DNA of 61,197 bases, the filler included, from Sandaracinaceae bacterium (GTDB lineage: Bacteria > Myxococcota_A > Polyangia > Polyangiales > JADJQN01), in the NCBI GenBank assembly GCA_947483975.1. It is 4 parts of 4 records of this genome, joined end to end, with 100 filler letters (N's around TTAATTAATTAA, not from the genome) between each part and the next. Parts side by side here need not be neighbours in the genome. Positions count along the whole stretch, not along the records: positions 15,417 to 30,646 come from CANKOL010000095.1; 3 more parts are not named here. One strand, given 5' to 3'. The translations under genes and the position numbers were made by a program. The notes under the pieces were generated by a model that saw only the letters and a program-made list of their open reading frames with translations, ran no database searches and was not told the DNA's origin. Shown here one piece after another: positions 15,317 to 46,050 of this stretch (position 1 is the stretch's first letter; every line of letters starts with the position of its first letter).

Positions 15317-15416
15317 NNNNNNNNNNNNNNNNNNNNNNNNNNNNNNNNNNNNNNNNNNNNTTAATTAATTAANNNNNNNNNNNNNNNNNNNNNNNNNNNN
15401 NNNNNNNNNNNNNNNN
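15317..15416. other. Artificial contig linker
   Basis: N44-TTAATTAATTAA-N44 (stops in all frames). Confidence 0.98.
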
Positions 15417-16308: not shown

Positions 16309-16328
16309 GTCTGCGTCCTCCGAGAGAC

Positions 16329-17018: not shown

Positions 17019-17133
17019 AGGGTGATCTCCGGGAGGGGCTGCACGGCCCGCTTCGTAGCACAGGCACCGGAGGGCGCGGAGCCGAGCCGACGCCGTACGA
17101 CTGAGTGGCGAGGGGCGGCGTTCCTGGTCTAGG

Positions 17134-18396
17134 ATGCGCGCTGTGGCGGAGCCTACCGATCTCGTGATCGTGGCAGCGGACGGAACGCTGCGCGTGGTCG
17201 GGCGGGGCGCCGAGCGGCGCTTGCGCGATCGCGCGGGCCGCTACCGCCTGATCGTCGACTCGGACGAGCTGCTGGTGCTCCGCGGCGAGGGCCGCGCCGG
17301 GCGGACGGGCGGACCGCGCGTCTTGATGGCGGGCGAGATCGTCACGGGGACGACCGTGCTCGAGGTCATCAACATCATCGCCAACGCGAGCTGGCTCGGC
17401 GATCTGCGCATCTTCTCCGAGACCAACACGCGCTCGCTGACGTTTGATCGCGGCGCGGTCAAGCACGCGCACAGCAATCACCCCGACGACCGCCTCGGCG
17501 AGGTGCTCTATCGCCTCGGGGTGCTCTCCCGCGCGGAGCTCGACGCGCTGTTGCGCGACGTGACGCCCGAGCGACGCTTCGGGCATCTCCTCGTCGAGCG
17601 CGGCATCGTCGATCGCGAGAAGCTCTTTCAATATCTGCAGAAGCAGGTCGAGACGATCTTCCACGCGGCGGTGCTCGTGCGCGAGGGGACGTACGTCTTC
17701 ACGACGCCCGACGAGAGCGGACCGCCGCCCCCGGCGACCGTGCACATCCACGCGCAGAGCCTGCTGATGGAGGGCGTGCAGCGCATCGACGAGATGGCGC
17801 TCTTTCGCGAGCGCATCCCGCACGGGCGCATGGTGCCGCAGGCGCTCGACGGCGCGCCGGAGACGAAGCTCGACGGGGACGCGTCCACGGTGCTCGCGTA
17901 TTGCGACGGCACGCGCACGATCGAGGAGATCGGCCGCGAGACGGGGCTCGGCGAATTCGGCACGACCAAGACGGTCTATCACCTGCTCCAGGCGAGCCAG
18001 GTGATGCTGCACGACGCCTCGAAGACCGGCACCGACGCGGACCAGGTGCGCGCGCTCGTGGCGCAGTTCAACGAGGTGATGCGCGACATCTTCGTCGCCG
18101 TCGCCACCTACGGCGGCGTCGAGCAGACGCGCGAGACGCTGAGCGCCTGGGTGCAGGGGAGCGGCTACGTCCCGTTCTTCGGCGAGCGCGTCGAAGAGGA
18201 CGGAAGCATCGAGCCGGAGCGGGTCGCGACCGCGCTGGCGACCGTGCAGGCGGACCGCCCGCTCGAGGCGCTGCAGCAGGCGCTGCACGAGATGGCCGCC
18301 TTCGCCCTCTTCGCGGCGACGACCTCGATGCCGCGGGCGCAGGAGATCGCCCTCGCGCGCGACGTGAACCGGCGCCTCAAGGCGATCCGGATGTGA
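17134..18396 (+). CDS. DUF4388-type protein
   Basis: DDRLGEVL, RRFGHLLVERG, LLMEGVQRIDE and DGTRTIEEI winged-helix-like segment typical of myxobacterial DUF4388 proteins. Confidence 0.75.
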   Translation: MRAVAEPTDLVIVAADGTLRVVGRGAERRLRDRAGRYRLIVDSDELLVLRGEGRAGRTGGPRVLMAGEIVTGTTVLEVINIIANASWLGDLRIFSETNTRSLTFDRGAVKHAHSNHPDDRLGEVLYRLGVLSRAELDALLRDVTPERRFGHLLVERGIVDREKLFQYLQKQVETIFHAAVLVREGTYVFTTPDESGPPPPATVHIHAQSLLMEGVQRIDEMALFRERIPHGRMVPQALDGAPETKLDGDASTVLAYCDGTRTIEEIGRETGLGEFGTTKTVYHLLQASQVMLHDASKTGTDADQVRALVAQFNEVMRDIFVAVATYGGVEQTRETLSAWVQGSGYVPFFGERVEEDGSIEPERVATALATVQADRPLEALQQALHEMAAFALFAATTSMPRAQEIALARDVNRRLKAIRM

Positions 18397-18427
18397 GCGG
18401 CGCGTTCGGCGTCGACGACCTGCACCG

Positions 18428-18457
18428 TTGACAACGTGGGGCGTGGGCCCCAGCAAT
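18428..18457 (+). promoter_or_regulatory. Possible sigma70 promoter for bolA-grxD
   Basis: Perfect TTGACA at 18428-18433, weak -10 (AGCAAT) 18 nt downstream, just before ATG 18465. Confidence 0.35.
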
Positions 18458-18464
18458 TCGGCCC

Positions 18465-18716
18465 ATGATTGAAACCGCAGCCCTCGAAGAGCGCATCCGC
18501 GCAGGCATCCCAGACGCTACGCACGTGCAGGTCGTCGACCTCCGCGGCGGGGACCATTTTCAAGCGACGGTGGTCGCGCCGAGCTTCGCGGGGATGACCC
18601 GCGTCGCGCAGCATCAGAGCGTCTACCGCGCGCTCGGTGAGCTGATGGGGGGGCCCGTGCACGCGCTCGCGATCGCCACACACACGCCCGAGTCTTGGGC
18701 GCGCGTACTCAAGTAG
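18465..18716 (+). CDS. bolA: BolA/IbaG family protein
   Basis: GDHFQATVV, HQSVY, VHALAI; adjacent to a Grx4 gene. Confidence 0.9.
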   Translation: MIETAALEERIRAGIPDATHVQVVDLRGGDHFQATVVAPSFAGMTRVAQHQSVYRALGELMGGPVHALAIATHTPESWARVLK

Positions 18717-18736
18717 ACAGGACTGAGGAGAACCCG

Positions 18737-19060
18737 ATGGACGAAGCCACGCGCGAGCAAATCCAGACGTTGATCGACACGAATCCGATCGTCGTGTTCA
18801 TGAAGGGGAACAAGAATTTCCCGAAGTGCGGCTTCTCCGCGACCGTGGTCGAGGTGATGAAGCGCGTCGCCGTCGACTACCAAGACGTGAACATCCTCGA
18901 GCACCCCGACCTGCGCGAGGGCTTGAAGGAGTTCTCGAGCTGGCCGACGTTCCCGCAGATCTACATCAGCGGGAAGTTCATCGGCGGCTGCGACATCCTG
19001 CGCGATATGTTCACGAGCGGAGAGCTCGAGCCGCTCGTCCGCGAAGCCGTCGCGAAGTGA
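18737..19060 (+). CDS. grxD: Monothiol glutaredoxin (Grx4 family)
   Basis: FMKG, PKCGFS, WPTFPQ, GGCD; GAGGAG RBS. Confidence 0.95.
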   Translation: MDEATREQIQTLIDTNPIVVFMKGNKNFPKCGFSATVVEVMKRVAVDYQDVNILEHPDLREGLKEFSSWPTFPQIYISGKFIGGCDILRDMFTSGELEPLVREAVAK

Positions 19061-19099
19061 CCGCTCGATTCGCTGCCTGAGCGCGCGAAGGCGACGCGC

Positions 19100-19597
19100 T
19101 CAGAGCGGCGGATCGGGGAAGTCGCACGCCGGCGCGGGGACGGGCGCGCACTCGGCCTTCATGTTGGGACCGCCCTCGAAGAGGCGCATGGTCGCGGGCG
19201 ACGCGGCGCACTGCAGGATGTTGCACGCCGGGATCGTGACGGGGCCTGAGGTCGTCATCACCTCGGTGGGGACGATCGTGGAGAGGGCGGGCGCGCACTC
19301 CGTGAAGTAGTTGCGGATGACAGCCTGGTACTCGGCCGGGAAGGCCTCGACGCCAGTGCAGTTGAAGGTCAGCGTCGTCGCGCCGGGGCAGATCGTCAGG
19401 CTGGCGTTGCGGTACTGGCACGCGAAGCGCGCGCAATCGCTCGCGATGGTGCCGTCCGAGGCGGGGCAGGTGGCGAGCGTGTTGAGGTCGCGCACGGGAC
19501 CGCCATCGGACGCCGAGGCGTCGTCGCCTCCGCACGCGGCGAGCGACGCGAGGGCGAGCACAGCGAGCAGAGCGAGCAGCGTTCGGCTGGACTTCAT
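19100..19597 (-). CDS. Hypothetical Cys-containing lipoprotein
   Basis: Signal peptide with lipobox LAAC; 10 further Cys. Confidence 0.7.
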   Translation of the reverse strand: MKSSRTLLALLAVLALASLAACGGDDASASDGGPVRDLNTLATCPASDGTIASDCARFACQYRNASLTICPGATTLTFNCTGVEAFPAEYQAVIRNYFTECAPALSTIVPTEVMTTSGPVTIPACNILQCAASPATMRLFEGGPNMKAECAPVPAPACDFPDPPL

Positions 19598-19607
19598 GGC
19601 GCGAAGC

Positions 19608-21518
19608 CTACGCGGGCGCGGATGGCGTGGCTAGGGTCGGAGCGGGCCCGACGGCGCTCACGCCGACGAGCCGCTGCAAGGCGGCGATCCCCTTGAGCGC
19701 GGCCTCGAACGGGCGGCGCGGGCGACCCTCGAGCAGCGCGCGCACGCTCGGGTTGGCCGCGAGCTCCTCCGTGACGACGAGCTCGCCCGCCTTCGCCTGC
19801 GCCTGCAAGCGCGCGGCGACGTTCACCGTCGTGCCGAAGAAGTCGAGGCGCTCGTTCGCGCGGACGGCGAGGCACGCGCCCGCGTGCACGCCGAGCTTCA
19901 CGCCGAGGCCGAGCGCGCCGTGCTGCGCGTCGTTCGCCGCGACCATCGCGATCGCCGCGCGGACCGCGTCGGCGGGCGAGGCGAACGTCGCCATCACGGC
20001 GTCGCCCATCGTCTTGACGACCGCGCCGCCGTGCGCGTGCACGGCCTTCTCCATCGCCCGGAAGTGCTCCTCGACGATCGCGAACGCGCGCGCGTCGCCG
20101 ACTCGCTCGTAGAGCGCGGTCGAGCCCGTGAGGTCGCTGAAGAGGACGGCGAGGTTGCTGATCGCGAGGTCGACGCCGGTCGCGGGCGCCTCGGTCGCGA
20201 AGAGGTCGAGGAAGTCCGGGAAGGTCGCGACGACGCTGCCGAGCACCGCGTCGGCCGACCAGCCGGAGCGCTCGACGAGGAGCGTCGCGGGCTCGCTGAG
20301 GCGGTTCTCGACGATGAGCTGCGTGAGGCCATGGGGCGCGGCGTGCCCCTCGGCGCTGACGCGCACGGCGTCGGCGCTGACGACGATGCGCAGCGTCGCG
20401 GGCGGCGCGTCGAGCTCGACGTCGGCGGTCAGCGCGAGCCCGAGCGCGCGCACATGCAGCTCGCCGAGGGGCAGCCCCGCGGGCACGGTCCGCTCGGTGT
20501 TCGCGGGGACGCGCAGCTGCGCGAGCACGTGCGGACGAAACGCCGGGCTCGACGCGCAGTAGACGGAAGTCTGCGTGCGGCGCACGGCGGGATTTGCCTG
20601 AAAGACGGCCTCGACGTAGCGGCCGAAGTCCACTCCGTAGCTGACGTCGCACGCCTCGCAGTGCACCGATTTGCCGACCTCCGCGAGCCCCTCGGCGACG
20701 CTCGCGGAGACGCGACAAACGGGGCAATTCACCTGCCAGCGCAGGTCGACCAGACCCGCGCGCGTCGCGTGCAGGAAGAGCCGCAACACCTCGCGCCTGT
20801 CGGCGCCCCAAGCCCGCGCGAGCTCGAACGGGCGGAGCTGCGCGAGCTCCTCGTCGGGGCGCTCGCGGAGGAGCGCGACGAGCCGCGCGATGAGGGCGTC
20901 CGACACCGCGCCGGCGCGCGAGAGCCTCTGCGCGCGGAGGTGCAGCTCGCCCTCATCCGACGCCGTGCGCACGCCCGACACGATGGCGTCGTAGCCGGCC
21001 ATCAGGGTGCGCCGCGCCCGCACGACGGCGGGCTCAGCGTCTGCGCGCGTCGCGTCGTCGAGCAAGCCCCGCGCGAGCGTCGCCTCGATCGCGTCGAGGT
21101 AGCGGCCGAGCGCGGCCAGATTGCGCCGACGCACGACCGGACCGAGCAGCTTGAGCAGCGCACCGTCGCCCGCGAACCACGAGGTCGCGTCGACGACCGT
21201 CGTGCCGGCGGCCCCGTCCGCGAGCGTCACGGAGAGCCCGCCGCCCTGCGCGGGCCCTTCGAGAAAACGCCGCTCTCCCTCGATGAAGTAGCCCTCGGAC
21301 CACTCGTAGGGCGGCTCGTACCAGACGAGGCTCTGCCCGAGCTCCTTCGCGCGTCCGACGTATTGCCTGCGGCCGTCGACGAGCTTCCACTCGTAGTTCC
21401 CGGCGGCGAGCCCCGACGCGCGATTCCAGCGGTTCGTGTCCGCGACGAGCGCCCACACGAAGTCACGCGGCGCCCGGAGGGTACGGCGCAGCGTCGCGGC
21501 GTAGCGCTTGCCGGTCAT
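19608..21518 (-). CDS. Class III adenylate/guanylate cyclase with N-terminal SRPBCC-like and DUF5939-like domains
   Basis: FSDLTGST, VKTMGDAVMA, DFFGTTVNVAAR; central CPVC...CEAC. Confidence 0.85.
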   Translation of the reverse strand: MTGKRYAATLRRTLRAPRDFVWALVADTNRWNRASGLAAGNYEWKLVDGRRQYVGRAKELGQSLVWYEPPYEWSEGYFIEGERRFLEGPAQGGGLSVTLADGAAGTTVVDATSWFAGDGALLKLLGPVVRRRNLAALGRYLDAIEATLARGLLDDATRADAEPAVVRARRTLMAGYDAIVSGVRTASDEGELHLRAQRLSRAGAVSDALIARLVALLRERPDEELAQLRPFELARAWGADRREVLRLFLHATRAGLVDLRWQVNCPVCRVSASVAEGLAEVGKSVHCEACDVSYGVDFGRYVEAVFQANPAVRRTQTSVYCASSPAFRPHVLAQLRVPANTERTVPAGLPLGELHVRALGLALTADVELDAPPATLRIVVSADAVRVSAEGHAAPHGLTQLIVENRLSEPATLLVERSGWSADAVLGSVVATFPDFLDLFATEAPATGVDLAISNLAVLFSDLTGSTALYERVGDARAFAIVEEHFRAMEKAVHAHGGAVVKTMGDAVMATFASPADAVRAAIAMVAANDAQHGALGLGVKLGVHAGACLAVRANERLDFFGTTVNVAARLQAQAKAGELVVTEELAANPSVRALLEGRPRRPFEAALKGIAALQRLVGVSAVGPAPTLATPSAPA

Positions 21519-21520
21519 GG

Positions 21521-22810
21521 TCAGTTGAGCGCGGCGAGCCGCGCTTGCGCGATCGATGAGCTCGGGTCGCGGGCGAGCGCGTCGCGCCAGGCGGTGCGCG
21601 CGCCGCTGCGATCGCCGGCGCGCTCGTGCAGGAGCGCGAGGTTCATCAGCGGGTGCGGGTCGCTCGTGTCGAGCTCGGCCGCGCGGGCGAGCGCGAGCGC
21701 TGCGCCTTCGCGATCCCCGAGGTGCGAGAGCGCTGCGCCGAGCCCGTTGTGCGCGGCCGCGAGGTTCGGCGCGCGCGTCAGCGACTCGCGAAACGCGTGC
21801 ACAGCCGCCGTCGCGTCGCCGGAGGCGAAGAGCGCGTTGCCGAGCTTGAGCCAGCTCGCGGCGTCGGCGTCCTCACGCGAGAGCGCTTCGCGGTAGAGGC
21901 GCACGGCCTCGCGCGGGTCGCCGAGGTCGGCGGCGATGTCTCCGAGCGCGAGCACCGGCTCAGCGTCGTTCGGCGCAAGCTCCGCCGCGCGGCGGAAGTC
22001 GTCCGCGGCGGTCGACGCCTGCCCCGCAGCGGCGCGCGCGAGGCCGCGACCGAAGACCGCGTCGGAGTCCGCCGGCGCGAGGAGCACGGCGTGCTCGAAG
22101 GCGCTCAGCGAAGCGGCGTGGCGCCCATCGCGGCGGAGCAGCCCGCCGAGGTTGATCAGCGGCACCGGATCGTGTGGATCGGCCGCGACGGCCTGCCGCA
22201 GATCCGCCTCCGCGCCCTCGAGGTCGCCCTGATGTTCACGCACGAGCGCGCGGCGATTCCACAGGCCGCTCGCGCGGGGCGCCGCGGTGATCGCGCGATC
22301 GAGCAGGCGGCGCGCGAGCACCTCGTCGCCCTCGTCGGTCGCGACGTCCGCGGAGAGCACGAGCGCGCGCGCGTGATCAGGCTCGAGCGCGAGCGCGGCG
22401 TCGAGCGCGCGATGGGCCGCCGCGGGCTCTCTGCGGCGCAGGGCGATCGCGGCGCGCAGCACGAGCAGGTTCGCCGTCTCCCCGAGGCGCAGCCGCGCCG
22501 CGTCGAGGGAGCCCTCTGCGAGGACGAGGTCGCCGCGCGTGTAGTCCTCGAGCGCCTCGGCGTACTGCCGCAAGCCGACGGTCTGCGCGTCGGTCGCGTC
22601 GAGCGCCTCCGCGCGCAGGAGCAACGAAGCCGCCGTCGACGCCTGCAGGCGGTCGAGCTCGGGCGCCTCCTCGAGGGGTGCGTCGAGCCGCGCCTTCGCG
22701 AGCGAGACGAGCCGGTCGCGCTCCTGCGTCTGCCAGGAGGCGTACGAGAGGACGGCCACGGCCCCGAGGGACGCCACGGCGAGCACGAGGAGCAGCGGTC
22801 GGCGGTTCAT
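21521..22810 (-). CDS. Tetratricopeptide repeat protein with N-terminal signal/anchor
   Basis: Hydrophobic N-terminus; serial 34-aa TPR-like units. Confidence 0.85.
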   Translation of the reverse strand: MNRRPLLLVLAVASLGAVAVLSYASWQTQERDRLVSLAKARLDAPLEEAPELDRLQASTAASLLLRAEALDATDAQTVGLRQYAEALEDYTRGDLVLAEGSLDAARLRLGETANLLVLRAAIALRRREPAAAHRALDAALALEPDHARALVLSADVATDEGDEVLARRLLDRAITAAPRASGLWNRRALVREHQGDLEGAEADLRQAVAADPHDPVPLINLGGLLRRDGRHAASLSAFEHAVLLAPADSDAVFGRGLARAAAGQASTAADDFRRAAELAPNDAEPVLALGDIAADLGDPREAVRLYREALSREDADAASWLKLGNALFASGDATAAVHAFRESLTRAPNLAAAHNGLGAALSHLGDREGAALALARAAELDTSDPHPLMNLALLHERAGDRSGARTAWRDALARDPSSSIAQARLAALN

Positions 22811-22909
22811 CGAGGGCGACGGTCGAGCGCGCGCGCGGAGGGGTCAAGTTTTCGACAGAAGAAACGGCGATGGTCGACACGGCCCGGCGATCGGGCACGC
22901 TCGGCCCCG

Positions 22910-24055
22910 ATGGCCGACACCGACGACCGACGCGCGTTCTTCGCCACCGCAGCCAAAGGCACCGAGGGCGCGCTGCGCGACGAGCTACGCGAGCTGCGCC
23001 TGCCCGCCGTCAAAGCCGAGCGCGGCGGCGTGCGCTTCGGCGGCACGCTGCGCGACGCCTACCGCGCCTGCCTCGGCAGCCGCATCGCGGTGCGCGTGCT
23101 GCAAGAGGTCGCGCGCTTCCGCTGCACCGATGGCGACACGCTCTACGAGGGCGTGCGCGAGGCGTATCGCTGGGACGAGGTCCTCGACGTGCGACGCACG
23201 CTCGCCGTCACCTGCGCGCTGAAGAACTCACAGCTCACGCACTCGGCGTTCGTCGCGCAGCGCACCAAGGACGGCATCGTCGATCAGCTGCGCGACACGT
23301 TCGGCGCGCGCCCCGACGTCGACAAGTCGGACCCGGACGTCGCGGTCTTCGTGCATCTCGTCAAGGACGAGGCGACCGTCTACCTCGACGTCAGCGGGGA
23401 CTCCCTGCACCGCCGTGGCTGGCGCGCGAAGGGCCGCGACGCGCCGCTCAAGGAGACGCTCGCCGCGTCGATCCTGCGCCTCGCGGGCTGGGACCGCGTA
23501 CGCCCGCTCGCCGATCCGATGTGTGGCTCGGGCACGCTCGCGATCGAGGGCGCGCAGTGGGCGCGCCGCATCGCGCCGGGGCTCGCGCGCGAGTGCTTCG
23601 GCGCCGAGCGCTGGGCGTCGCACGACGCGACGCAGGCGAACGTGATCGACGCGCTGCGCGAGGACTTCCGCGCCTGCATCCTCCCCGCGAGCGAGTCGCC
23701 CGACGTGCTCGCGACGGACCTCGACGCGCGCGCGGTCGCGCAGACGAAGGAGAACGCGCGGCTCGCCGGCGTCCCGGAGATTCAGGTGATGCAGCAGGAC
23801 ATCGCGGAGCTCGGCCCCGCGGAGCCTGCGGGTCACGTCATCGTCAACCCTCCCTACGGCATCCGCCTCGCCGCGGGGGACGCGCTGATCGAGCGCATGG
23901 CCTACGCCTTCCGCACGCTGCCTGGGCACCGCATCAGCGCGATCTGCGCGGACGACGCGCTCGTGCGCGGGCTCAAGCCGCTCAAGCCGTCCCAAGAGCA
24001 CGCGCTCTGGAACGGCGACCTCGAGTGTCGGCTGTTCTCCTGGGACATCGCCTGA
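22910..24055 (+). CDS. THUMP-domain class I RNA methyltransferase (RlmL-like, 23S rRNA G2445)
   Basis: SLHRRGWR, APLKETLAA, DPMCGSGT, NPPYG. Confidence 0.88.
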   Translation: MADTDDRRAFFATAAKGTEGALRDELRELRLPAVKAERGGVRFGGTLRDAYRACLGSRIAVRVLQEVARFRCTDGDTLYEGVREAYRWDEVLDVRRTLAVTCALKNSQLTHSAFVAQRTKDGIVDQLRDTFGARPDVDKSDPDVAVFVHLVKDEATVYLDVSGDSLHRRGWRAKGRDAPLKETLAASILRLAGWDRVRPLADPMCGSGTLAIEGAQWARRIAPGLARECFGAERWASHDATQANVIDALREDFRACILPASESPDVLATDLDARAVAQTKENARLAGVPEIQVMQQDIAELGPAEPAGHVIVNPPYGIRLAAGDALIERMAYAFRTLPGHRISAICADDALVRGLKPLKPSQEHALWNGDLECRLFSWDIA

Positions 24056-24094
24056 GCGGGGCTCAGGCCCCGTAGAAGACTCGACGGGCGGAGC

Positions 24095-25138
24095 TCAGGA
24101 GCCGCAGGCCGGGGCGGGCCTCTGCGGAGGGCGAGGCGCCGCTCCAGGCGACCGACCCGCGCCGACCGGCATCCCCGGGCGCAGCAGCCACGGGGCGATG
24201 TCCACGCGCTCACCGATCACGCCCTCGCGCGCGAAGAAATCGAGCTGCGCCTGCAGCAGCTCCGCGTCGACCTCGTCGGAGGTCAGGTAGCGCGGGCGCC
24301 CGAGGCCGTCGTCCGAGAGCTTGCAGTCCCTCGGGAGATACGCCGCCGCGTCGCGCCGCGCGCCCCGCTCGTCCGCGCGCACCTGCCGCACGGCCTCGTC
24401 GAGCGCAGCGACCACGCGGCGCACGGTGCCCGGCTCATCGGCGACGAAGTGCGAGTCGAACACGAAGCTCCCGAACAGAAACGGGCTGCCGAGCTCCGAC
24501 GGCAGCAGCGGTCGGTCACCAAAGAGATAGGCGACCTCCGCGCGCAGCGCCGCCGTCGCCGCCGGGTCGTTCGTGAAGACCGCGTCGATCTTCCCCGAGC
24601 GCAGCGCCTCGACGGTGTCGGTCGGGAGCACATCGCAGCCGCTGACGAGGCGGTCGAGCGGCACCTCGAGCGACGCGCAGGTGCTCATGCACTGGCAGGT
24701 CTTGTCGAGCACGACCTGGTGATAGCCGAGACCGCGCCGCTTGCAGAGGAGCTTCAGCCACTCGCGGTACGCCTTCGTCGGGAGCGTGCCGACGCGACGC
24801 CCGGCGAGGTCGTCGAGCGTGCGGATCTCGACGCCCTTGCGGACGAGCAGGAACGAGATCGGGTGCTCGAGGTCCTCGACGACGGCGCCCGCGTAGAAGA
24901 ACGGACGCGCGCGCGCGTGCCGGTGGAGCGCGATCGGCAGCGCGATGATGCCGCCGCAGGGGACCGCGGCGCCGTCGATGATCTCGTCGACGACGGGGTG
25001 CGCCGTCGGGTAGCCGCGCATCGTCACGCGCAGCCCCTGGTCAGCGAAGAGCCCGCGGGCGTCGGCGACGAAGAGCGGCAGCGAGATGCCGAGCGCGCTG
25101 TAGCCGATGGTCAGCGTCGAGGTGTCGGAGGTGGACAT
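24095..25138 (-). CDS. SsuA/NMT1-like substrate-binding-fold protein, no evident signal peptide
   Basis: LPLFVADARGLFADQGL, IRTLDDLAGRRVG, ALRSGKIDAVF, VVAALDEAV; Cys-rich insertion. Confidence 0.75.
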   Translation of the reverse strand: MSTSDTSTLTIGYSALGISLPLFVADARGLFADQGLRVTMRGYPTAHPVVDEIIDGAAVPCGGIIALPIALHRHARARPFFYAGAVVEDLEHPISFLLVRKGVEIRTLDDLAGRRVGTLPTKAYREWLKLLCKRRGLGYHQVVLDKTCQCMSTCASLEVPLDRLVSGCDVLPTDTVEALRSGKIDAVFTNDPAATAALRAEVAYLFGDRPLLPSELGSPFLFGSFVFDSHFVADEPGTVRRVVAALDEAVRQVRADERGARRDAAAYLPRDCKLSDDGLGRPRYLTSDEVDAELLQAQLDFFAREGVIGERVDIAPWLLRPGMPVGAGRSPGAAPRPPQRPAPACGS

Positions 25139-25241
25139 CCGCCGATTGTGAAGTTCCACAAGCTCTCTAGGCAAGGTGATTGCGCGAGATCAACTTCCAT
25201 TCCTGGGGGGCCCCTACGGTCGCAGTCGGAGGGCGAGACCA

Positions 25242-27431
25242 ATGCACGTCGCGCTGATCGGGGCTGAGCTCGAGGAGAATCTGGCGGTGCGGTACCTGCG
25301 AGGCGCGCTCGAGGACGCCGGGCACCAGGTCACGCAGATCGTGTTCGACAGCCCCGCGGACCTCGACCGCGCCGCGGCGGAGCTAGCGAGCTCGCGCGCG
25401 CCGCTCGCCGGGATGTCGATGGTGTTCACGCGCCGGGCGCTCGAGTTCGTCGAGCTGAGCCAGCGAGCGCGGGCGCTCGGGTACGCGGGGCACATCACGG
25501 CGGGCGGGCACTTCGCGGCGTTCAACGCGGAGTCGCTCGTGCGCGATGTGCCGACGCTCGACTCCATCGCCATCGGCGAGGGCGAGGCGATCCTGCTGTC
25601 GCTCGCCGCGCACCTCGAGGACCTCGGCGCCGTCGAGGGGCTGGTGTGGCGAGACGCGGACGGCTGCCCGCGCCGCAACGCCGCCGCCTGCAAGCTCGCG
25701 GACCTCGACGCGCTCCCCTGGCCGACGCGCAAGCTGCCGTACTTCCGCTATCTCGGGCTGCCGATCGTCAACATGCTCGGCTCGCGCGGCTGCTCGTATC
25801 ACTGCGACTTCTGCTCGATCACCGCGTGGCACAAGATGAACGGCGGCGCGCGCCTGCGGATGCGGGCGCCCGAGTGCGTCGCCGAGGAGATGGCCGCGCT
25901 CTACGACGACGGCGTGCGCATCTTCAATTTCCACGACGACAATTTCCTGCTGCCGAACCGCCGCCTGACGCTCGAGCGCCTCGACCGGCTCGAGGCTGCG
26001 CTCCTCGCGCGCGGCGTGGGGCGCATCGCCTTCGCCATCAAGGCGCGCCCCGACGAGGTCGACCGCGAGCTCTTCGCGCGGCTGAAGCGGATGGGCCTGT
26101 TCCGCGTGTTCCTCGGCGTCGAGGCGGGCTCGGCGGAGTCGCTGATTCGCCTCGGGCGCGGGCAGCTCCTCGCGGACAACGAGCGCGCGCTCGAGATCGT
26201 CAACGAGCTCGACATTCACGCGTGCTTCAACCTGCTGCTGTGGAACCCGGACTCCACGCTCGAGGACGTCGCGCACAACGTCGCCTTCCTCGGCACGCAC
26301 GCGCGCAATCCGATGAATTTCTGCCGCACGGAGGTGTACGCGGGCACGCCGCTCGAGGCGCGGCTCCGCGAGCGCGGCGCACTGATCGGCAGCTACTGGG
26401 GCTGGGACTACCGGATGACGGATGCGCGCGCGGAGGCGTCGTTCGAGATCGCGCTCGCCGCGTTCGAGCAGCGCAACTACGGCGCTGAGAGCGTGCATCA
26501 CTGGTCGATGCGCCTCGACTACGAGGTGCAGCTGCTCGGGCACTTCTTCACCGCCGACGAGCGCCTGCAGCGGCGGGTGAAGGCGTTCGTCGTGGAGGTG
26601 AACCTCGACACCTGCGCACACCTGACCACGATCGTGCGCGCCATCGACGCGGGGCTCGGCGACCGGGACGCCTTCACGCGGCAGATGATCGAGACGGTGC
26701 ACGCGCGCGACCGGGAGCTCGACGCGCTCGCGCAGGACATCCTCGACGACATCCACGACGCGGTGCAGCGACGACCGCTGCGCGGCGCCTGGGCGCAGCG
26801 CGCTGCGGCGGCGGGGCTCGCGGCGACGCTCTCGCTCGGCACCGCCGGCTGCCCGGCGGACAACCACCCGGCGACCTACCCGACGGAGACGATCCCCGTC
26901 CCGACGCTGCCCATCGTGCCGCCGAAGCCGCAGCCGGTCCCGACGGGCGTCGAGCTGATCCCCATCGCGCCGCAGCCCCCGGGGAGCGCTCCGCTCGGCG
27001 CGCCCGCCGCGCTTCGACCGGCGTTCGACGCGGCGGTCCTCCCGTGGCTCGCCGCCCGCGTGCGCCCTGCGCGTGACGTGACCGTGGCGCTCGAAACCGA
27101 CGCGACGGGCCACGTCGTCACGGCAGACCTGCAATCCGACGGGCTGACGGCAGCGCTCCGCGAGCGCTTGCTGCGGCGCATCCAGGCCGAGACCTTCACC
27201 GGCGCAGACGTCGTCGGGCACCGGTTCACGCTCTTGCTCACGGCCGCCGAGCTGACCGCGGCGCTGCCGCCGACGCATAGGAGCGAGCGCGCGCCGTATC
27301 CGACGCACCCGAGCGAGATGATCGCGCCGCCGCACATGGCCGAGGCCGCGCCGCGCCCGCAGCGTCCGCCCGACAACGGCTACATCTCGGAGATGGCGCC
27401 GATGCCGCCGAAGGGCAGCGGCAAGCGATAG
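25242..27431 (+). CDS. Cobalamin-binding radical SAM protein with long C-terminal extension (internal lipobox, repeated H/YxxE motifs)
   Basis: B12-binding signature GGHF...DSIAIGEGE; SRGCSYHCDFC cluster motif; FHDDNF; LGVEAGS; GTPL; GGAGG RBS at 25228-25232. Confidence 0.9.
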   Translation: MHVALIGAELEENLAVRYLRGALEDAGHQVTQIVFDSPADLDRAAAELASSRAPLAGMSMVFTRRALEFVELSQRARALGYAGHITAGGHFAAFNAESLVRDVPTLDSIAIGEGEAILLSLAAHLEDLGAVEGLVWRDADGCPRRNAAACKLADLDALPWPTRKLPYFRYLGLPIVNMLGSRGCSYHCDFCSITAWHKMNGGARLRMRAPECVAEEMAALYDDGVRIFNFHDDNFLLPNRRLTLERLDRLEAALLARGVGRIAFAIKARPDEVDRELFARLKRMGLFRVFLGVEAGSAESLIRLGRGQLLADNERALEIVNELDIHACFNLLLWNPDSTLEDVAHNVAFLGTHARNPMNFCRTEVYAGTPLEARLRERGALIGSYWGWDYRMTDARAEASFEIALAAFEQRNYGAESVHHWSMRLDYEVQLLGHFFTADERLQRRVKAFVVEVNLDTCAHLTTIVRAIDAGLGDRDAFTRQMIETVHARDRELDALAQDILDDIHDAVQRRPLRGAWAQRAAAAGLAATLSLGTAGCPADNHPATYPTETIPVPTLPIVPPKPQPVPTGVELIPIAPQPPGSAPLGAPAALRPAFDAAVLPWLAARVRPARDVTVALETDATGHVVTADLQSDGLTAALRERLLRRIQAETFTGADVVGHRFTLLLTAAELTAALPPTHRSERAPYPTHPSEMIAPPHMAEAAPRPQRPPDNGYISEMAPMPPKGSGKR

Positions 27432-27533
27432 CCGCCGACGCGCGCTCGTCACGCGCGCTGCCGGACTGTGACCAAGTCGTGGCGGGCAGCCGCGCGCGCG
27501 GAGGACCAAGGTATTGGCGAGTGAGGTGGATGC

Positions 27534-28955
27534 ATGGAGAGCCTGGTTGTTCTCTCAGATGTGCATCTCGGAAGTGACCTCGGGGTCCCGGGCGCGGTCG
27601 CGCCTGCGCGGTCGGTGCAGATCGACGACGACCTCTGCCGCCTGATCGATCACTACCGCTCGACGGAGCCCAACGGCGAGCGCTGGCGCCTCGTCGTCGC
27701 GGGCGATTTCATCGACTTCGTCGGGATGACGCTCCCGACGGACGCGCCCGGCACGGAGACGGCGCCCAACGAGGAGGAGCTGCTCCACGGGCTCGGCAAC
27801 GCCGAGGACCACGCCGTCGCCAAGATGCACGCGGTCGCCGTGCGGCACCGCGAGATCTTCGCCGCGCTCGGGCGCTTCGTCGCCGAGGGGCACGCGATCA
27901 CCTTCATTCGCGGCAATCACGACGTGGAGCTGCACTGGGCGCTCGTGCGGGCTGAGCTGACGCGCACCATCGTCGAGCACGCCCGCGCTTGGTCCGAGGC
28001 CCCCGCGGCGCACGGCGGGCGCGCCCTCCCCTTCGACGCCGCGGCCATCGCCGCGCGCATCGAGGACGCCCCGTGGTTCCTGAACGTGGAGGGCGTCGCC
28101 TACATCGAGCACGGGCACCAATACGACCCGTTCTGCTCCGTCGATCACGTGCTCTCCCCGCGACGCGCGCTCGACCCGCGCCGCATCGCGCGGGGGTTCA
28201 CCGACGTGCTCCTGCGCTTCGTCGTGCGACGCACTCCGGGGGTGCCGGAGTACGGGCACGAGACGATGGGTGTGATCGACTACGTGCGCATGGCCGCGCG
28301 CCTCGGGCCGAGCGGGATGTGGCTGCTCTTCGTGCGCTTCGTCCGCGCGATCCGCGAGCTCTTTCATCTGCGCACGGAGTACGCCTCCGACGCGGCGCGC
28401 CGCCTCGCCGCGGAGCACGACCTGATGCTCGCGAAGTTTGCGGCAGCGCGGCGCATGGGCGCGGAGAAGCTGCGCGCGCTCTGTGCGCTGCAGGTCGCGC
28501 CGATCACGCGCACGGCGGCGGGCATCCTCGCGAGCCTGCTGCTCGATCAGATCGCGGTCGGCACGCTCGGGCTGCTCTTGCTCACCGTGTTCGGCGTGCT
28601 GTCTTATTTCTACCCGAGCTTTCTCTGGGGAGACGGCGTCGTCCTCGCGGCGTGGCTCGGCGCGTTCTTCTGGCTGCGCAGGCTCCGCAAGATCGACCCC
28701 GACATCGAGCTTGGGCTGCGGGCAGGCGCGCTCGCGCGGCTCTTCTCTGCGCCCTTCGTCGTCATGGGGCACACGCACGTCCCGCGTCGGCAGCTCGTCG
28801 CGGGGGGCGCGACGTACGTGAACCTCGGGTCGTGGTCGGAGTCCGTCGGGCAGATCGCGACGCGCACGCACCTCGTGATTCAGGGCGCGCCGGGCGCGGT
28901 GCGCGCGGAGCTGCGCTCGTGGTCGTCGGTGCTCGGTCCGCGCGTGTTCAGCTGA
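27534..28955 (+). CDS. Calcineurin-like metallophosphoesterase with two predicted TM helices
   Basis: SDVHLG, GDFID, GNHD, EHGH, GHTH. Confidence 0.85.
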   Translation: MESLVVLSDVHLGSDLGVPGAVAPARSVQIDDDLCRLIDHYRSTEPNGERWRLVVAGDFIDFVGMTLPTDAPGTETAPNEEELLHGLGNAEDHAVAKMHAVAVRHREIFAALGRFVAEGHAITFIRGNHDVELHWALVRAELTRTIVEHARAWSEAPAAHGGRALPFDAAAIAARIEDAPWFLNVEGVAYIEHGHQYDPFCSVDHVLSPRRALDPRRIARGFTDVLLRFVVRRTPGVPEYGHETMGVIDYVRMAARLGPSGMWLLFVRFVRAIRELFHLRTEYASDAARRLAAEHDLMLAKFAAARRMGAEKLRALCALQVAPITRTAAGILASLLLDQIAVGTLGLLLLTVFGVLSYFYPSFLWGDGVVLAAWLGAFFWLRRLRKIDPDIELGLRAGALARLFSAPFVVMGHTHVPRRQLVAGGATYVNLGSWSESVGQIATRTHLVIQGAPGAVRAELRSWSSVLGPRVFS

Positions 28956-28962
28956 GACGGCG

Positions 28963-29460
28963 TCACGCGCGCGGCGCAGGCCGAAGCAGGCGCCCGAGCA
29001 GCGCGCCCGCGAGCACGAGCGCGAGCGTGAGCACCCAGGCGCGCGGGGCGAACGGCGCGAGCAAGAGGTGGTGCACGACGAGCGCCGGCGCGACGTAGAC
29101 GAGCCGGTGGAGGGGCTTCCAGAGCACGACGCGCGCGCCGCGCACGACGACGGGAAACGACGTCGCGAGCAGCGCAGCGAGGAGCGCCGCGGCGAGCGCG
29201 CCCGAGCGCAGCCAGGGGTTCTCGCGGAGCGCGCTCCAGGGCTCGGGCTGCAGGTAGGTGAACAGCGCGACCGCGCCGTGCGCGAGGGCGAGCGACGCGG
29301 CGACGATCCCGAGCCAGCGGCGGGCTGCGAGCAACCTCGGTCGCGCGGCCCCCCGCGAGGCGCGCAGGCGCACGAGCGGGGTCACGGCGAGCGACGCGGT
29401 GAGCAGGATGGCCGCGAGCCAGCCCGTGCAGCGGAGTCCGAGCGCGACAACCTCGCTCAT
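28963..29460 (-). CDS. Ferric-reductase-like transmembrane protein (MsrQ/YedZ-like)
   Basis: TGWLA..LL..SLAVTP, RRWLG, LAHG, LLATS, WKPLHRLVY...HH; start overlaps upstream stop (ATGA). Confidence 0.8.
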   Translation of the reverse strand: MSEVVALGLRCTGWLAAILLTASLAVTPLVRLRASRGAARPRLLAARRWLGIVAASLALAHGAVALFTYLQPEPWSALRENPWLRSGALAAALLAALLATSFPVVVRGARVVLWKPLHRLVYVAPALVVHHLLLAPFAPRAWVLTLALVLAGALLGRLLRPAPRA

Positions 29461-30646
29461 AGGGACTCCAAGAAGCCGACGAGGTCGTCGAGCGCGGCGC
29501 GGGAGAGGCCGCGCGTGTGGCCGTGTCGGTCGTCGGGATTCTGCTCTTTGAAGATCGCGCGCAGCGAGGTCGCGCGCCCATCTTGGAGCCAGCGCGAGCG
29601 GCGCGACACGGCGCGCAAAGAAGGAGTGTCGAGCGACGCTCCGGGGGCCGAGCGCGCCCGCGGGAACACGGCGCGCGCGAGCTGCGAGCCGAGGTTCGTC
29701 ATCGCCGGCGCCGCGTGACAGGTCGGGCAGCCCGCCCGCACGAACACCGCGAAGCCCCGGCGCTCGCGGGGCAGATCGCGCGGCGCGAGGGAGCGCTGCA
29801 GGGGCAGCGAGGCGATCCACGCGTCGAGCGTCGCGCCTCGATCACCGGCGGGCTCGCGGTAGCCGCGATAGCGAAGCTGCGCGACCTCGAAGAGGTCCCC
29901 CATGCGCGGATAGCTGCCATCGCGCAGGTACGGCGAGGTGCCGCCGATCCCACGCACATCGAGCGTCGGCGCGAGGACTCGCCCGCCGATGTTGTGCGCC
30001 ATCTCGTCGCTGCCAGCGTCCGGGTGACAGCTCTGGCAGCTCACGCCGGAGCGCGTCCCCTCGTAGAACGCGCGCTCACCGAAGCGGCGGCGGAGCGCGT
30101 CCGGGTCGTCGCGCAGCAGCGTCGCGTCGTCGGGCGCGAGGGCGATCGTCGCGCGCAGCGCGCCCGTCGAGGGGTCGAGCACCGCGAGGCGTCCGCTCGA
30201 GGGAGAGGTCGCGACGAGCGCAGGAGTTCCGGTGCGCGGGTCGGTCAGGAGCACGACGGACTGCGGCGCAGAGAGCCCGAGCGCCGCGACGTCGAAGGAC
30301 TGCGGCGCGCCGCCGCGCGGGTCGATGCGGGTGAGCTCGTCGCTGCCCGCGAACGCGACCAGCCACGCGCCGGAGGGCGTCGAGAAGAGGCCGAGCGGGG
30401 AAATTCCGCGGTCCGCGTCGCCCGCGGCGTCCTGCCGGGGGCTCCTCCGCGCGGTGTTGCGCTGCGCGACGAGCGCGAGAGTCTGCGCGTCGAAGGTGAG
30501 GAGTTGGTCCTGCACGTAGTGATTGCCGAGATGCGGGGTGGCGTCCGCGCTCCAGTCCGTCGCGGCGAGCACGACGCGCGCGCCGCCGTCGAGCGCGGTC
30601 AGCGTCAGCGCGGGCGCGAGCAGCGGGCGCTCCTGCGCGAGGCGCA
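29457..30646 (-). CDS. Beta-propeller plus diheme cytochrome c (cytochrome c peroxidase-like) protein, 5'-partial
   Basis: Heme motifs CQSCH and CPTCH; PTLDVRG...PYLRDGS; DTPSLR...WLQDG; HGHT...LVGFLESL. Confidence 0.82.
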
Positions 30647-30746
30647 NNNNNNNNNNNNNNNNNNNNNNNNNNNNNNNNNNNNNNNNNNNNTTAATTAATT
30701 AANNNNNNNNNNNNNNNNNNNNNNNNNNNNNNNNNNNNNNNNNNNN
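30647..30746. other. Artificial contig linker
   Basis: N44-TTAATTAATTAA-N44. Confidence 0.98.
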
Positions 30747-45950: not shown

Positions 45951-46050
45951 NNNNNNNNNNNNNNNNNNNNNNNNNNNNNNNNNNNNNNNNNNNNTTAATT
46001 AATTAANNNNNNNNNNNNNNNNNNNNNNNNNNNNNNNNNNNNNNNNNNNN
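45951..46050. other. Artificial contig linker
   Basis: N44-TTAATTAATTAA-N44. Confidence 0.98.

Follow-up and report, generated by a model that had tools for sequence, protein, structure and literature searches.

A cobalamin-type radical SAM enzyme joined in one frame to a predicted internal lipoprotein-type signal and a divergent TonB-like tail

Layout and integrity of the fused gene

Within the window, the 61,197-nucleotide stretch of DNA that we analysed, one plus-strand open reading frame (ORF) runs from 25176 to 27431 as a single continuous frame with zero internal stops. From its domain content, we read this frame as a cobalamin-type radical SAM enzyme, a helical domain, an internal lipoprotein-type signal and a TonB-like tail, in that order (Table 1). 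Residues are counted from GTG 25176 unless stated to be numbered from M23. The probable true start is M23, encoded by ATG 25242; the matching residue begins 25 of 25 aligned homologs. The gene has a third-position GC content (GC3) of 0.93.

Table 1 Features of the fused gene, with positions along the window and residues counted from GTG 25176
Feature	Position	Strand	Remark
Whole gene	25242..27431	+	729 codons from ATG 25242, plus stop
Open frame from its upstream limit, GTG 25176	25176..27431	+	751 codons
Cobalamin (B12)-binding domain, residues 34-141	25275..25598	+	Pfam PF02310, 44.3 bits against a cut-off of 32.1
Radical SAM core, residues 203-367	25782..26276	+	Pfam PF04055, 52.4 bits against a cut-off of 29.5
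Cluster motif C206-x3-C210-x2-C213 (CxxxCxxC)	25791-25814	+	Inside the radical SAM core
C-terminal helical domain of the enzyme, residues about 417-532	26424..26771	+	AF2 model
Internal signal-peptide-like segment V530-G558	26763..26849	+	n-region QRRPLRGAWAQR, then 16 uncharged residues A543-G558
Lipobox cysteine C559, box T-A-G-C	26850..26852	+	Predicted Lgt lipidation site
Proline-rich linker, residues 560-606	26853..26993	+	pLDDT <50 in the full-length AF2 model
First, degenerate motif copy YPTETIP	26877-26897	+	Within the proline-rich linker
Folded alpha/beta domain, residues 607-695	26994..27260	+	Putative divergent TonB C-terminal domain
C-terminal motif cluster	27273..27410	+	Four motif copies
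Motif copy THRSERAP	27273-27296	+	
Motif copy THPSEMIAP	27303-27329	+	
Motif copy PHMAEAAP	27330-27353	+	
Motif copy YISEMAP	27381-27401	+	

The enzyme part combines the features that define class B radical SAM proteins, namely CxxxCxxC, a PF04055 core and an N-terminal B12-binding domain, and C206, C210 and C213 are invariant in an alignment of 26 sequences. Its helical domain is modelled by AF2 with pLDDT >90 (helices 395-510, numbered from M23). By Foldseek, the best structural match was OxsB (5ul4, E 2.8e-21), followed by MgmA, CysS, AprD4, TsrM and TokK. Similar to the query, MgmA (PDB 9ccb), TsrM, CysS, TokK and OxsB pair a B12-binding Rossmann domain with a CxxxCxxC barrel (E 2.8e-21 to 1.8e-14); to our knowledge, none of these five carries a signal peptide or a fused substrate. 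No curated NCBIfam family reached its cut-off: BchE scored 88.2 bits against 481 as the best match, and further scores were 84.3 against 650 and 75.7 against 750, with HpnR (84 bits) and HpnJ (65 bits) among the families matched. With scores so far under the cut-offs, the query does not qualify as a named equivalog (BchE, HpnR, ApyD, HpnJ and others). The family 'CUAEP/CCAEP-tail radical SAM (seleno)protein' (NF040546) is also a B12-binding radical SAM family with a conserved C-terminal tail motif, the tail being thought to be the enzyme's own substrate, and the query matches it weakly and is not a member (48.6 bits against a cut-off of 500). The NF040546 tail is short and is not known to have a signal peptide or a folded domain. 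Neighbouring genes in the window encode a DUF4388 protein, an NMT1-like binding protein, a metallophosphoesterase and a ferric-reductase-like protein, and these are not conserved next to homologs.

Contigs from other samples, produced by a study distinct from the likely source, cross the region with the frame kept. One from run X5 spans 26300-27145 with 3 substitutions and 0 gaps, and one from run X8 spans 26300-27450 with 7 substitutions and 0 gaps; neither an indel nor a stop was seen in runs X2, X5 and X8, and X10 had no coverage of 26729-27079. That a lost stop or a frameshift in assembly or annotation joined two genes has a negligible chance of being right: the draft genome is fragmented (524 contigs, 81% complete), which would allow it, but the contigs from other samples show no gap and more than 100 fused homologs come from unrelated assemblies.

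The best 120 of 808 relatives are 499-880 residues long, mostly 640-860 residues with 89-97% query coverage, and records that carry the fused architecture are labelled Myxococcota, Planctomycetota, Verrucomicrobiota/Lentisphaerota, among other names. The same genome (contigs C79 and C413) and relatives also encode paralogs that keep the internal lipobox and carry other repeats, VDP[PLV]PxDAG; these paralog clades are 38-39% identical and their tails are unrelated. Clade-specific repeats of this kind would be expected were every enzyme clade to have a substrate motif of its own. Sequence comparison thus presents the fusion as real and old, and the suggestion in the initial annotation of two recently fused genes found no support because the fused form spans several phyla labels and paralog clades this divergent bear other tails. 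In an enzyme tree rooted on a distant paralog and read for topology alone, lipobox-bearing clades flank a tail-less clade on both sides, and we drew no order of fusion and fission from it.

The internal signal and its lipobox

The segment VQRRPLRGAWAQRAAAAGLAATLSLGTAGC covers residues 530-559 of the 751-codon ORF (26763-26852) and consists of a basic n-region, 16 uncharged residues and TAGC. It begins at residue 508 counted from M23, and its cysteine is residue 559, or 537 from M23. The initial annotation had described this segment from the same DNA, and its account held: a basic n-region with RR (the arginines are R532, R533, R536 and R542), a hydrophobic stretch, TAGC with its Cys codon at 26850-26852, a position about 510 residues in, and no stop ahead of it. 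The query's AATLSL-GT-A-G-C conforms to the lipobox pattern that we used, an uncharged run followed by [LIVMFWSTAG]2-[LIVMFYSTAGCQ]-[AGS]-C, in the style of PROSITE PS51257.

Both the cysteine and the h-region, whose conservation the initial annotation had named as a check on its reading, are conserved among homologs in the alignment. Counts were made on 200 relatives (121 database proteins and 79 loci), two overlapping sets of related sequences. A hydrophobic segment lies ~340 residues after CxxxCxxC in 180 of the 200; it ends in Cys in 145 of these 180 and lacks the Cys in the other 35. Position -1 is Gly, Ala or Ser in 142 of the 145 (A 67, G 58, S 17), the uncharged stretch that leads up to the Cys is 11-23 residues long (median 16), and the n-region has a net charge of at least +1 in 173/180. 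The lipobox pattern matched 345-364 residues past the cluster motif in 116 of 184 proteins, and elsewhere it matched only 5 times among the 2125 Cys of the same proteins. These counts argue that the lipobox at this place is more than chance. The genome also encodes the machinery, with two LspA homologs (PF01252) and eight Lgt homologs (PF01790) above cut-off, and LspA cleavage is predicted between G558 and C559 after lipidation of C559 by Lgt.

Other properties of the segment are less typical. The Cys of prolipoproteins lies within about the first 35 residues; here it is residue 559. The maximum 11-residue Kyte-Doolittle value of the h-region is 1.68, compared with a median of 2.39 for N-terminal lipoprotein candidates of the same genome, a crude set of 465 with many false calls. 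AF2 models the segment as a low-confidence helix followed by disorder.

The Tat motif is S/T-R-R-x-F-L-K. Export by Tat found no support: RR is present in 57 of 116, but the longer Tat-like word RRx[FLIVMW][LIVMFA] in no more than 9 of 116. The residue at +2 after the Cys is Lys or Arg in 65 of 145 relatives and Pro in the query, and Lys at +2 is an inner-membrane lipoprotein mark in Myxococcus xanthus (PMC3222651). Together with the TonB-like tail, these +2 residues leave the more specific earlier proposal of a surface lipoprotein unsupported.

An internal start near GTG 26763 would place the signal at the N terminus of an ordinary lipoprotein, so that one frame would yield two products. We consider this highly improbable. 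A GTG does stand at 26763, and 8 of 49 loci offer a start-like codon 14-35 codons ahead of the Cys together with a Shine-Dalgarno-like word, a combination seen in 1 of 49 for each of two control windows. However, the other 41 loci have no such site, leaving no conserved internal start; the 20 bases before the GTG (TCGACGACATCCACGACGCG) contain no Shine-Dalgarno-like word, bearing out the earlier remark that no clear ribosome-binding site precedes it; the 85% identical homolog P0003 has Ala at this position; and the whole family keeps the frame open, as an overlap alone would not require.

The TonB-like tail, its motif and the split relatives

The folded domain of the tail is modelled by AF2 with a pLDDT of about 97. 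A profile of 18 tails, compared with PDB sequences, matched Escherichia coli TonB (1xx3_A) at E 1.4e-5 and another four TonB entries with E values no higher than 2.2e-4. Foldseek matched the domain to the C-terminal domains of HasB, TolA, FusB and TonB (E 0.011-0.1; VIA Z of 4.4-5.1 for the fold matches), and TonB clusters of the ESM Atlas matched it at 0.92 and 0.91. Pfam TonB_C was found in 0 of 18 tails in single-sequence scans, even at E up to 10. Profile and fold comparisons point to a divergent TonB C-terminal domain.

TonB (PDB 1xx3, 2gsk, 1u07) and TolA domain III show the same order of parts, from membrane anchor through a Pro-rich spacer to an alpha/beta C-terminal domain. The anchor of TonB is an N-terminal helix that carries an S-x3-H motif, whereas the query would be anchored by the internal lipobox segment, which has no His; unlike TonB, the query also has an extra motif-bearing Pro-rich stretch after the domain. 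ExbB/ExbD genes were found neither among the five neighbouring ORFs scanned in the window nor among the conserved neighbours of homologs. The tail appears to be of a periplasmic kind because the TonB profile, the fold and the language-model features agree on it and a Pro-rich linker precedes it as in TonB.

Across the family, the repeated tail motif is [TS]-H-x-x-E-M-A-P-x-P. EMAP is the commonest 4-mer of 159 distinct tails, present in 107, and at least one copy of E[MRAYTV][AVIML][APHE] occurs in 151 of the 159, the modal copy number being 4. P718, E723 and P728 are nearly invariant in the homolog alignment. A YxxE motif noted earlier is present, with its Tyr 9 residues past the Cys in YPTETIP, but [TS]-H-x-x-E-M-A-P describes it better: at the corresponding place in the linker, homologs read SHPTEMAP, and by alignment the Tyr of the first copy is a variant of His. 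No other ORF with 3 motif copies was found in the genome.

A word-based search that took the 222-residue tail as query (122-389 aa window) yielded 2 matches, both on short contigs of 961 and 1587 bp, and the tail profile gave 382 matches at E up to 0.001 among 1.84 billion representatives. Among 17 of the 150 short matches listed, none was a convincing stand-alone tail lipoprotein. Most of these 17 begin within the enzyme or the n-region, which marks them as truncated gene calls. Pfam and NCBIfam searches of the tail and of the split partners described below gave nothing useful.

Models support docking of the tail onto the enzyme. Co-folding of the two gave ipSAE values of 0.68, 0.73 and 0.68, with 0.00 for the best of 3 controls, on an input of two halves of one alignment with paired rows, a design that cannot show binding. 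The alignment used was our own, so the calibration is only approximate: of 157 solved complexes 116 came up to this mark, as did 2 of 215 mismatched pairs. At least 31% of contacts agree between runs and the partner pLDDT is at least 62. Modelled contacts fall on residues 10-11, 25, 27 and 63 of the B12 domain and on 154-167, 209-225 and 256-258 of the barrel (numbered from M23).

Gene context ties a repeat protein to the enzyme in relatives without a tail as well. In one clade, 8 of 8 tail-less enzymes have a same-strand gene 11-112 bp downstream; at a ninth locus (L091), where the enzyme match is incomplete, the distance is 388 bp. FRPPPEPAH-type repeats occur in eight of the nine downstream partners. 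In the remaining partner (L090), the tail profile finds two domains (E 8.8e-7 and 3.4e-4 per domain, among 11 sequences), and this protein has 4 copies of GGPATE[IVM][IV]AYPSRP and no signal. At a further locus (L040), two tandem genes follow the enzyme after AAGGAG-N8-ATG; their products start with N-terminal signal peptides, have a GEM[AV]A motif directly behind the signal, and gave zero blastp matches to the fused tails at 1e-3. For Geomonas-type partners, we claim no homology to the tails (hhalign probability 9%; local hmmsearch E 4e-4 at best); a split-partner profile matched PDB sequences only as noise at E 0.2, and the ESM Atlas held no usable match for a Geomonas partner. The fused clade has no conserved operon partner, the largest neighbour cluster being that of the tail-less clade.

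As most split partners lack a signal peptide, their TonB-like or repeat protein would remain in the cytoplasm. This bears on a reading that we regard as improbable, in which nothing is exported: the Ala-rich segment would be a flexible or membrane-grazing linker, the Cys would have another role, and the tail would be a cytoplasmic substrate or a pseudo-substrate regulatory module. The co-fold of the tail domain on the enzyme, the signal-less partners of the Geomonas type and L090, the moderate hydrophobicity of the h-region and the low-confidence helix are consistent with it. It does not account for a family-wide uncharged run of about 11-23 residues behind a positive n-region and a lipobox-type -1 residue, for an internal lipobox retained in 38-39% identical paralog clades with unrelated tails, or for the classical N-terminal signal peptides of the L040 partners, and envelope proteins are where a TonB C-terminal fold and Pro-rich spacers are typically found.

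Proposed fate of the precursor

Our preferred reading, to which we give a little less than an even chance, is that the enzyme modifies its own tail in the cytoplasm and that the tail is then exported, lipidated and cleaved off. The tail is probably the substrate of its own enzyme; modification, export and cleavage are steps that we infer. The gene product would be one 729-residue precursor made of a cytoplasmic cobalamin-dependent radical SAM enzyme, an internal type-II signal peptide and a tail, the tail comprising a Pro-rich linker, a domain like the TonB C terminus and four to five motif copies. The TonB-like domain would dock on the enzyme and present the flanking motifs, which the enzyme would modify in the cytoplasm, the invariant Glu or its neighbours being candidates. 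By analogy with most class B enzymes, the chemistry would most likely be C-methylation; MgmA, the methyl-coenzyme M reductase glutamine C-methyltransferase, is a precedent for methylating a residue within a protein. The weakly hydrophobic, Ala-rich signal would then insert post-translationally in an N-in/C-out orientation and the tail would be translocated. Lipidation of C559 by Lgt and a cut just before it by LspA would free a 193-residue modified, lipid-anchored TonB-like protein into the envelope, and the enzyme would remain inside with the signal peptide left at its C terminus.

The initial annotation had likewise proposed that the tail is modified inside and then exported and lipidated while the enzyme stays behind. 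That proposal is now better grounded, by the co-fold, the split partners and the precedent of DAG-RiPPs, and its modification, export and cleavage remain inferences. DAG-RiPPs are hybrids of RiPPs and lipoproteins, in which a cytoplasmic enzyme modifies a precursor whose type-II signal and lipobox Cys are then handled by Lgt, LspA and Lnt; the targets are repeated or conserved short motifs and substrates can exceed 30 kDa (PMC13056109). In that account, the enzyme is an MNIO enzyme and a separate protein, and the signal is N-terminal (PMC13056109). The query instead has a cobalamin radical SAM enzyme, fused upstream so that the signal is internal, and a TonB-like cargo. Neither 'radical SAM' nor 'fused' occurs in the text of that paper (PMC13056109). 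The query shares DAG-RiPP logic and not membership, its enzyme being a fused radical SAM protein.

Several points weigh against our preferred reading. An internal signal is not something that the lipoprotein pathway is known to handle, and the literature searched yielded no precedent for an internal lipoprotein signal and no description of a fused cobalamin radical SAM enzyme, signal and tail. The h-region is less hydrophobic than those of the N-terminal lipoprotein candidates, and the Cys is absent from 35/180 relatives. To leave by Sec, a tail domain this well folded, if docked on a cytoplasmic enzyme, would first need to unfold. The signal-less split partners, the weak likeness of Geomonas-type partners to the tail and the failure of single-sequence scans to call Pfam TonB_C also count against it. 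Spending one enzyme molecule per substrate molecule would also be costly.

The relatives that have a hydrophobic segment without a Cys would suit the main rival, an uncleaved bitopic protein, which we judge unlikely, though not markedly so. Its signal-anchor would hold the cytoplasmic enzyme at the inner membrane with the TonB-like domain in the periplasm, much as in those members of the TonB family whose N-terminal parts are cytoplasmic; the enzyme would act on another target (a lipid or a cofactor), the tail would sense or bridge the envelope, and the Cys would either carry lipid with no cut being made or persist for some other reason. Bacteria commonly have N-in/C-out anchors that follow a large cytoplasmic domain, the TonB-like domain with its Pro-rich linker would fit such an anchor, and lipid and tetrapyrrole enzymes are among the best NCBIfam matches, none of which comes near its cut-off (BchE 88, HpnR 84 and HpnJ 65 bits). 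Yet the uncharged run, Ala-rich and with a median length of 16, is on the short side for a stable membrane helix, and Gly, Ala or Ser at -1 in 142/145, like the pattern count (116/184), fits the needs of Lgt and LspA and not a helix end. An uncleaved anchor would also leave unexplained the repeated motif and its clade-specific replacement in paralogs, the repeat-bearing partners of tail-less relatives and the co-fold of tail and enzyme, and no ExbB/ExbD or receptor gene is conserved nearby.

Returning to self-modification followed by release, we extend it tentatively, and with real doubt, to a whole superfamily of cobalamin radical SAM enzymes. Its members would be 'enzyme - internal lipoprotein signal - substrate' precursors whose clade-specific repeats (EMAP here, VDPxPxDAG in the paralogs) are self-modified, after which Sec, Lgt and LspA would split the polyprotein. 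If this holds, it would be the first internal type-II signal peptide in bacteria. It would come with an envelope protein, TonB-like and lipid-anchored, that radical SAM chemistry has modified, and with an enzyme used only once, whose TonB-fold domain also serves as a docking handle. Lgt and LspA would act on a signal behind 500 folded residues and would in effect be the processing protease of a bacterial polyprotein. Cobalamin radical SAM chemistry would join the newly described lipid-anchored, enzyme-modified envelope proteins, and a modified TonB-like protein would be present in the envelopes of uncultured freshwater Myxococcota and other phyla. Such a gene would be an unusually clean system for a new radical SAM reaction, with no partner hunt, because enzyme and substrate share one gene with four to five target motifs. 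The split forms would serve as natural controls, and one of them sits in cultured Geomonas oryzae.

The query gene and its internal signal-like segment

Runs of N at 15317-15416, 30647-30746 and 45951-46050 make the window a chain of separate contigs, so genes flanking these runs are not genomic neighbours; the query gene sits on the piece at 15417-30646 (contig C95 of the genome, G000). Because 25 of 25 aligned homologs begin at the equivalent of M23, ATG 25242 is its likely start. No curated NCBIfam family came near its cut-off for the query, the best being BchE (88 bits versus 481) and HpnR (84 versus 650). An AlphaFold2 model built on 74 sequences (mean pLDDT 84.8) best matched the cobalamin radical SAM enzymes OxsB (E 2.8e-21), MgmA, CysS, AprD4, TsrM and TokK in the PDB. 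The gene directly 3' encodes a metallophosphoesterase-like protein whose C-terminal half is hydrophobic; also 3' of the query lies a gene for a ferric-reductase-like membrane protein. Neither gene is kept beside homologs of the query gene.

Features of the query gene, its surroundings and related loci (residues are numbered from 25176; C79, C413 and C343 are other contigs of G000; L083, L090 and L040 are loci of relatives in other genomes)
Feature	Position	Strand	Remarks
Query ORF	25176..27431	+	751 open codons
B12-binding domain	residues 34-141	+	Pfam 44.3 bits, above threshold
Radical SAM core	residues 203-367	+	Pfam 52.4 bits, above threshold
Signal-like segment	V530-C559		Cys codon 26850
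Tail, Pro-rich linker	residues 560-606
Tail, folded domain	residues 607-695		pLDDT ~97 in both models
Tail, Pro-rich end			motif copies THRSERAP, THPSEMIAP, PHMAEAAP, YISEMAP
Metallophosphoesterase-like gene	27534-28955	+
Ferric-reductase-like gene	28963-29820	-
Paralog	G000:C79:5545-7872		38-39% identical enzyme domains in both paralogs
Paralog	G000:C413:1080-3605		as above
Tandem LspA genes	G000:C343:3458-5512		two genes, adjoining an Lgt-like gene
Geomonas oryzae partner gene	L083:7839-8558
L090 partner gene	L090:7583-8842		419 residues, 11 bp past tail-less enzyme; bin labelled Omnitrophota
L040 partner genes	L040:4261-4980 and 5291-6016		tandem paralogs past tail-less enzyme; bin labelled Planctomycetota

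The initial annotation had placed a lipoprotein signal peptide inside this cytoplasmic enzyme, and both the segment (VQRRPLRGAWAQRAAAAGLAATLSLGTAGC) and the motif YPTETIP, beginning 9 residues past C559, lie where it put them. In a census of 200 sequences (121 database proteins and 79 genome loci, two sets that overlap and hold related sequences, so the counts are not independent), 180 carried a hydrophobic segment ~340 residues past the cluster motif, and in 145 of these 180 it ended in Cys. The residue before that Cys was A (67), G (58) or S (17) in 142 of 145; the uncharged run had a median of 16 residues (range 11-23), and the n-region bore a net charge of at least +1 in 173 of 180. A 26-sequence alignment conserves the segment as WAxxAAAAGLAAxLxL, with L552 in at least 90% and Cys closing it in most. 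A PROSITE-style lipobox pattern matched 116 of 184 proteins at 345-364 residues past the cluster motif, versus only 5 places elsewhere among their 2125 cysteines.

The main rival to processing at C559 is that the segment serves as an uncleaved signal-anchor, tethering the enzyme and displaying the TonB-like domain of the tail. About one fifth of relatives (35/180) lack the Cys and still have the short hydrophobic run. In one such branch (L058, L061 and L062, from bins labelled Holophagaceae and Solibacteraceae), which may represent signal-anchor or signal-peptidase-I variants, a TonB-like stretch occurs in L058 and L061 at least, with few or no EMAP-type motifs. Internal initiation before the signal, a weaker rival, draws on a Shine-Dalgarno-like word plus start found there in 8 of 49 loci, compared with 1 of 49 in control windows; the query, however, has no such start, its GTG at 26763 being without a preceding Shine-Dalgarno-like word, as first reported.

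A word-indexed search returned 808 relatives, the best 120 of which span 499-880 residues, most of them 640-860 and covering 89-97% of the query. Records with the fused architecture carry the labels Myxococcota/Polyangia, Planctomycetota, Verrucomicrobiota/Lentisphaerota, Chitinispirillaceae and others, although not all metagenome-bin labels are reliable. Contigs from sequencing runs of other samples cross the junction gap-free, with substitutions only (X5 over 26300-27145, X8 over 26300-27450), and assembly artefact is excluded. A recent fusion, offered earlier as the alternative, is not borne out: the fused form is found under several phylum labels and in 38-39% identical paralog clades with other tails. 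The census, pattern counts, gap-free contigs and multi-phylum spread together rule out chance, artefact and recent fusion.

A TonB-like domain framed by repeated motifs

The folded domain of the tail is probably a TonB C-terminal domain of divergent type. The profile made from 18 tails matched TonB of E. coli (1xx3_A; E 1.4e-5) and a further four TonB entries (E <=2.2e-4), the alignment spanning the characteristic strand-turn-strand-helix stretch. Foldseek gave HasB, TolA-III, FusB and TonB C-terminal domains as best PDB matches (E 0.011-0.1, probability <=0.97), and the ESM Atlas gave TonB clusters at 0.92 and 0.91; VIA-align returned middling Z values of 4.4-5.1 for TolA and TonB and 5.4 for a DUF5043 protein. 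Single-sequence scans called Pfam TonB_C on 0 of 18 tails, and we therefore term the domain TonB-like and do not class the protein as TonB.

Counted without a prior motif, EMAP was the commonest 4-mer in 159 distinct tails, present in 107. Alignment on its Glu yields the consensus [TS]-H-x-x-E-M-A-P-x-P-P, at least one copy of which is present in 151 of 159 tails (mode four). Most relatives have a copy immediately past the Cys (for example, C-K-E-K-S-H-P-T-E-M), and in multi-domain tails such as that of L095 motifs alternate with domains. A six-frame scan of the genome found no other ORF with three EMAP-type motifs.

Co-folding of enzyme (1-508) and tail (537-729, both from M23), run on paired halves of one alignment, supports binding of the tail to the enzyme in the predicted models. 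The ipSAE values were 0.68, 0.73 and 0.68, against 0.00 for the best of three controls; among solved complexes 116 of 157 score that high, among mismatched pairs 2 of 215, a calibration that holds only roughly here because the alignment was our own. At least 31% of contacts agreed between runs, with partner pLDDT at least 62. Predicted contacts join the B12 domain and barrel helices to the tail at its ARVRPA loop, at the TonB-like domain's second helix and at residues beside the C-terminal motifs.

Split forms and paralogs

Across the fused clade no neighbouring gene is conserved, but one is in a tail-less clade belonging to the same enzyme family. In Geomonas oryzae (L083), L071, L072, L075, L077, L078, L092 and L091 (where the enzyme match is incomplete), a same-strand gene lies 14-112 bp 3' of the tail-less enzyme (388 bp in L091). 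Its product of 239-377 residues lacks a signal peptide and has a small domain surrounded by FRPPPEPAH or WxEPAH repeats, 3-5 per protein. These partners had no Pfam, NCBIfam or PDB match and resemble the tail weakly (hhalign probability 9%; local hmmsearch E 4e-4 at best), and we treat them as analogous to it in design.

L090 offers a clearer bridge between split and fused forms than the Geomonas-type partners. Its partner has two TonB-C-like domains; within a set of just 11 sequences, both matched the tail profile, at domain E values of 8.8e-7 and 3.4e-4. After them come four repeats of GGPATE[IVM][IV]AYPSRP, closely similar to PTEM[VI]AxP, and a Tyr/Pro-rich end; the gene leaves no room for a signal peptide. 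In L040, the enzyme ends ...ARVWERAAAG, and 33 bp on AAGGAG-N8-ATG opens a 239-residue gene whose product has a classical N-terminal signal peptide followed directly by GEMAARYGVP. Both L040 partners share the signal peptide, an immediately following GEM[AV]A[RK]YGV, a helical centre and a terminal YG[IV]R.

Two paralogs in the query's own genome keep the internal hydrophobic segment and lipobox (ANVQGC, WASAC) with quite different tails, which hold 7-8 VDP[PLV]PxDAG or DP[VL]P repeats and a conserved beta-rich end domain (L.L[IV]DQWRD ... LRVAVR..GGVAV); relatives L003, L005 and L007 follow the same design. Each enzyme clade thus pairs with a repeat motif of its own, either fused to it or encoded by the gene that follows, as expected of an enzyme and its substrate, and the tail is probably the substrate of its enzyme.

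Proposed processing and relation to known systems

On the best of the competing readings, the enzyme would modify its own tail in the cytoplasm before export and lipoprotein processing, with modification, export and cleavage all putative readings of the sequence. The TonB-fold domain would dock on the enzyme, and the flanking motifs would be modified in the cytoplasm. Methylation is our default guess, since C-methylation is the usual reaction of class B radical SAM enzymes and MgmA carries it out inside a protein. Low signal hydrophobicity favours late post-translational insertion, and this signal is less hydrophobic than the genome's typical candidates (1.68 versus a median of 2.39 in a crude comparison set); being Ala-rich and weakly hydrophobic, it might insert late and post-translationally. 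The tail would then cross the membrane, Lgt would lipidate C559 and LspA would cut before it, yielding a modified, lipid-anchored TonB-like protein.

Against export, the tightly folded tail domain would first have to be unfolded for Sec; a Tat-like word occurs in only 9 of 116 relatives, and the literature searches gave no precedent for an internal type-II signal. A fully cytoplasmic reading, with nothing exported, is a weaker rival; since most split partners have no signal, the module is evidently able to exist in the cytoplasm.

The logic of cytoplasmic modification followed by export is like that of DAG-RiPPs, MNIO-modified precursors with type-II signals, a modified precursor being routed via a lipoprotein signal (PMC13056109). 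In DAG-RiPPs, enzyme and substrate are separate and the signal N-terminal, whereas in the query they are fused and the signal is internal (PMC13056109). The separate elements are already known (class B radical SAM enzymes, lipobox signals, the TonB C-terminal fold and modified precursors that take the lipoprotein route); what seems new is one polypeptide running from cytoplasmic radical SAM enzyme through internal lipoprotein signal to probable substrate. This arrangement, described nowhere in the literature searched, is conserved across phyla, also in paralog clades whose repeats differ. Should the internal signal truly be processed, there is a substantial chance that it is more than a variation on a known design.

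LspA has two homologs in the genome and Lgt several. PF01790 (Lgt) gives eight matches above cut-off, spread over six contigs (C343 and five others), an unusual multiplicity of lipoprotein-pathway enzymes. At position +2 after the Cys, the query has Pro, and 45 of 145 relatives have Lys and 20 Arg; in Myxococcus xanthus, one study gives +2 Lys for 8 of 12 inner-membrane lipoproteins (PMC3222651).
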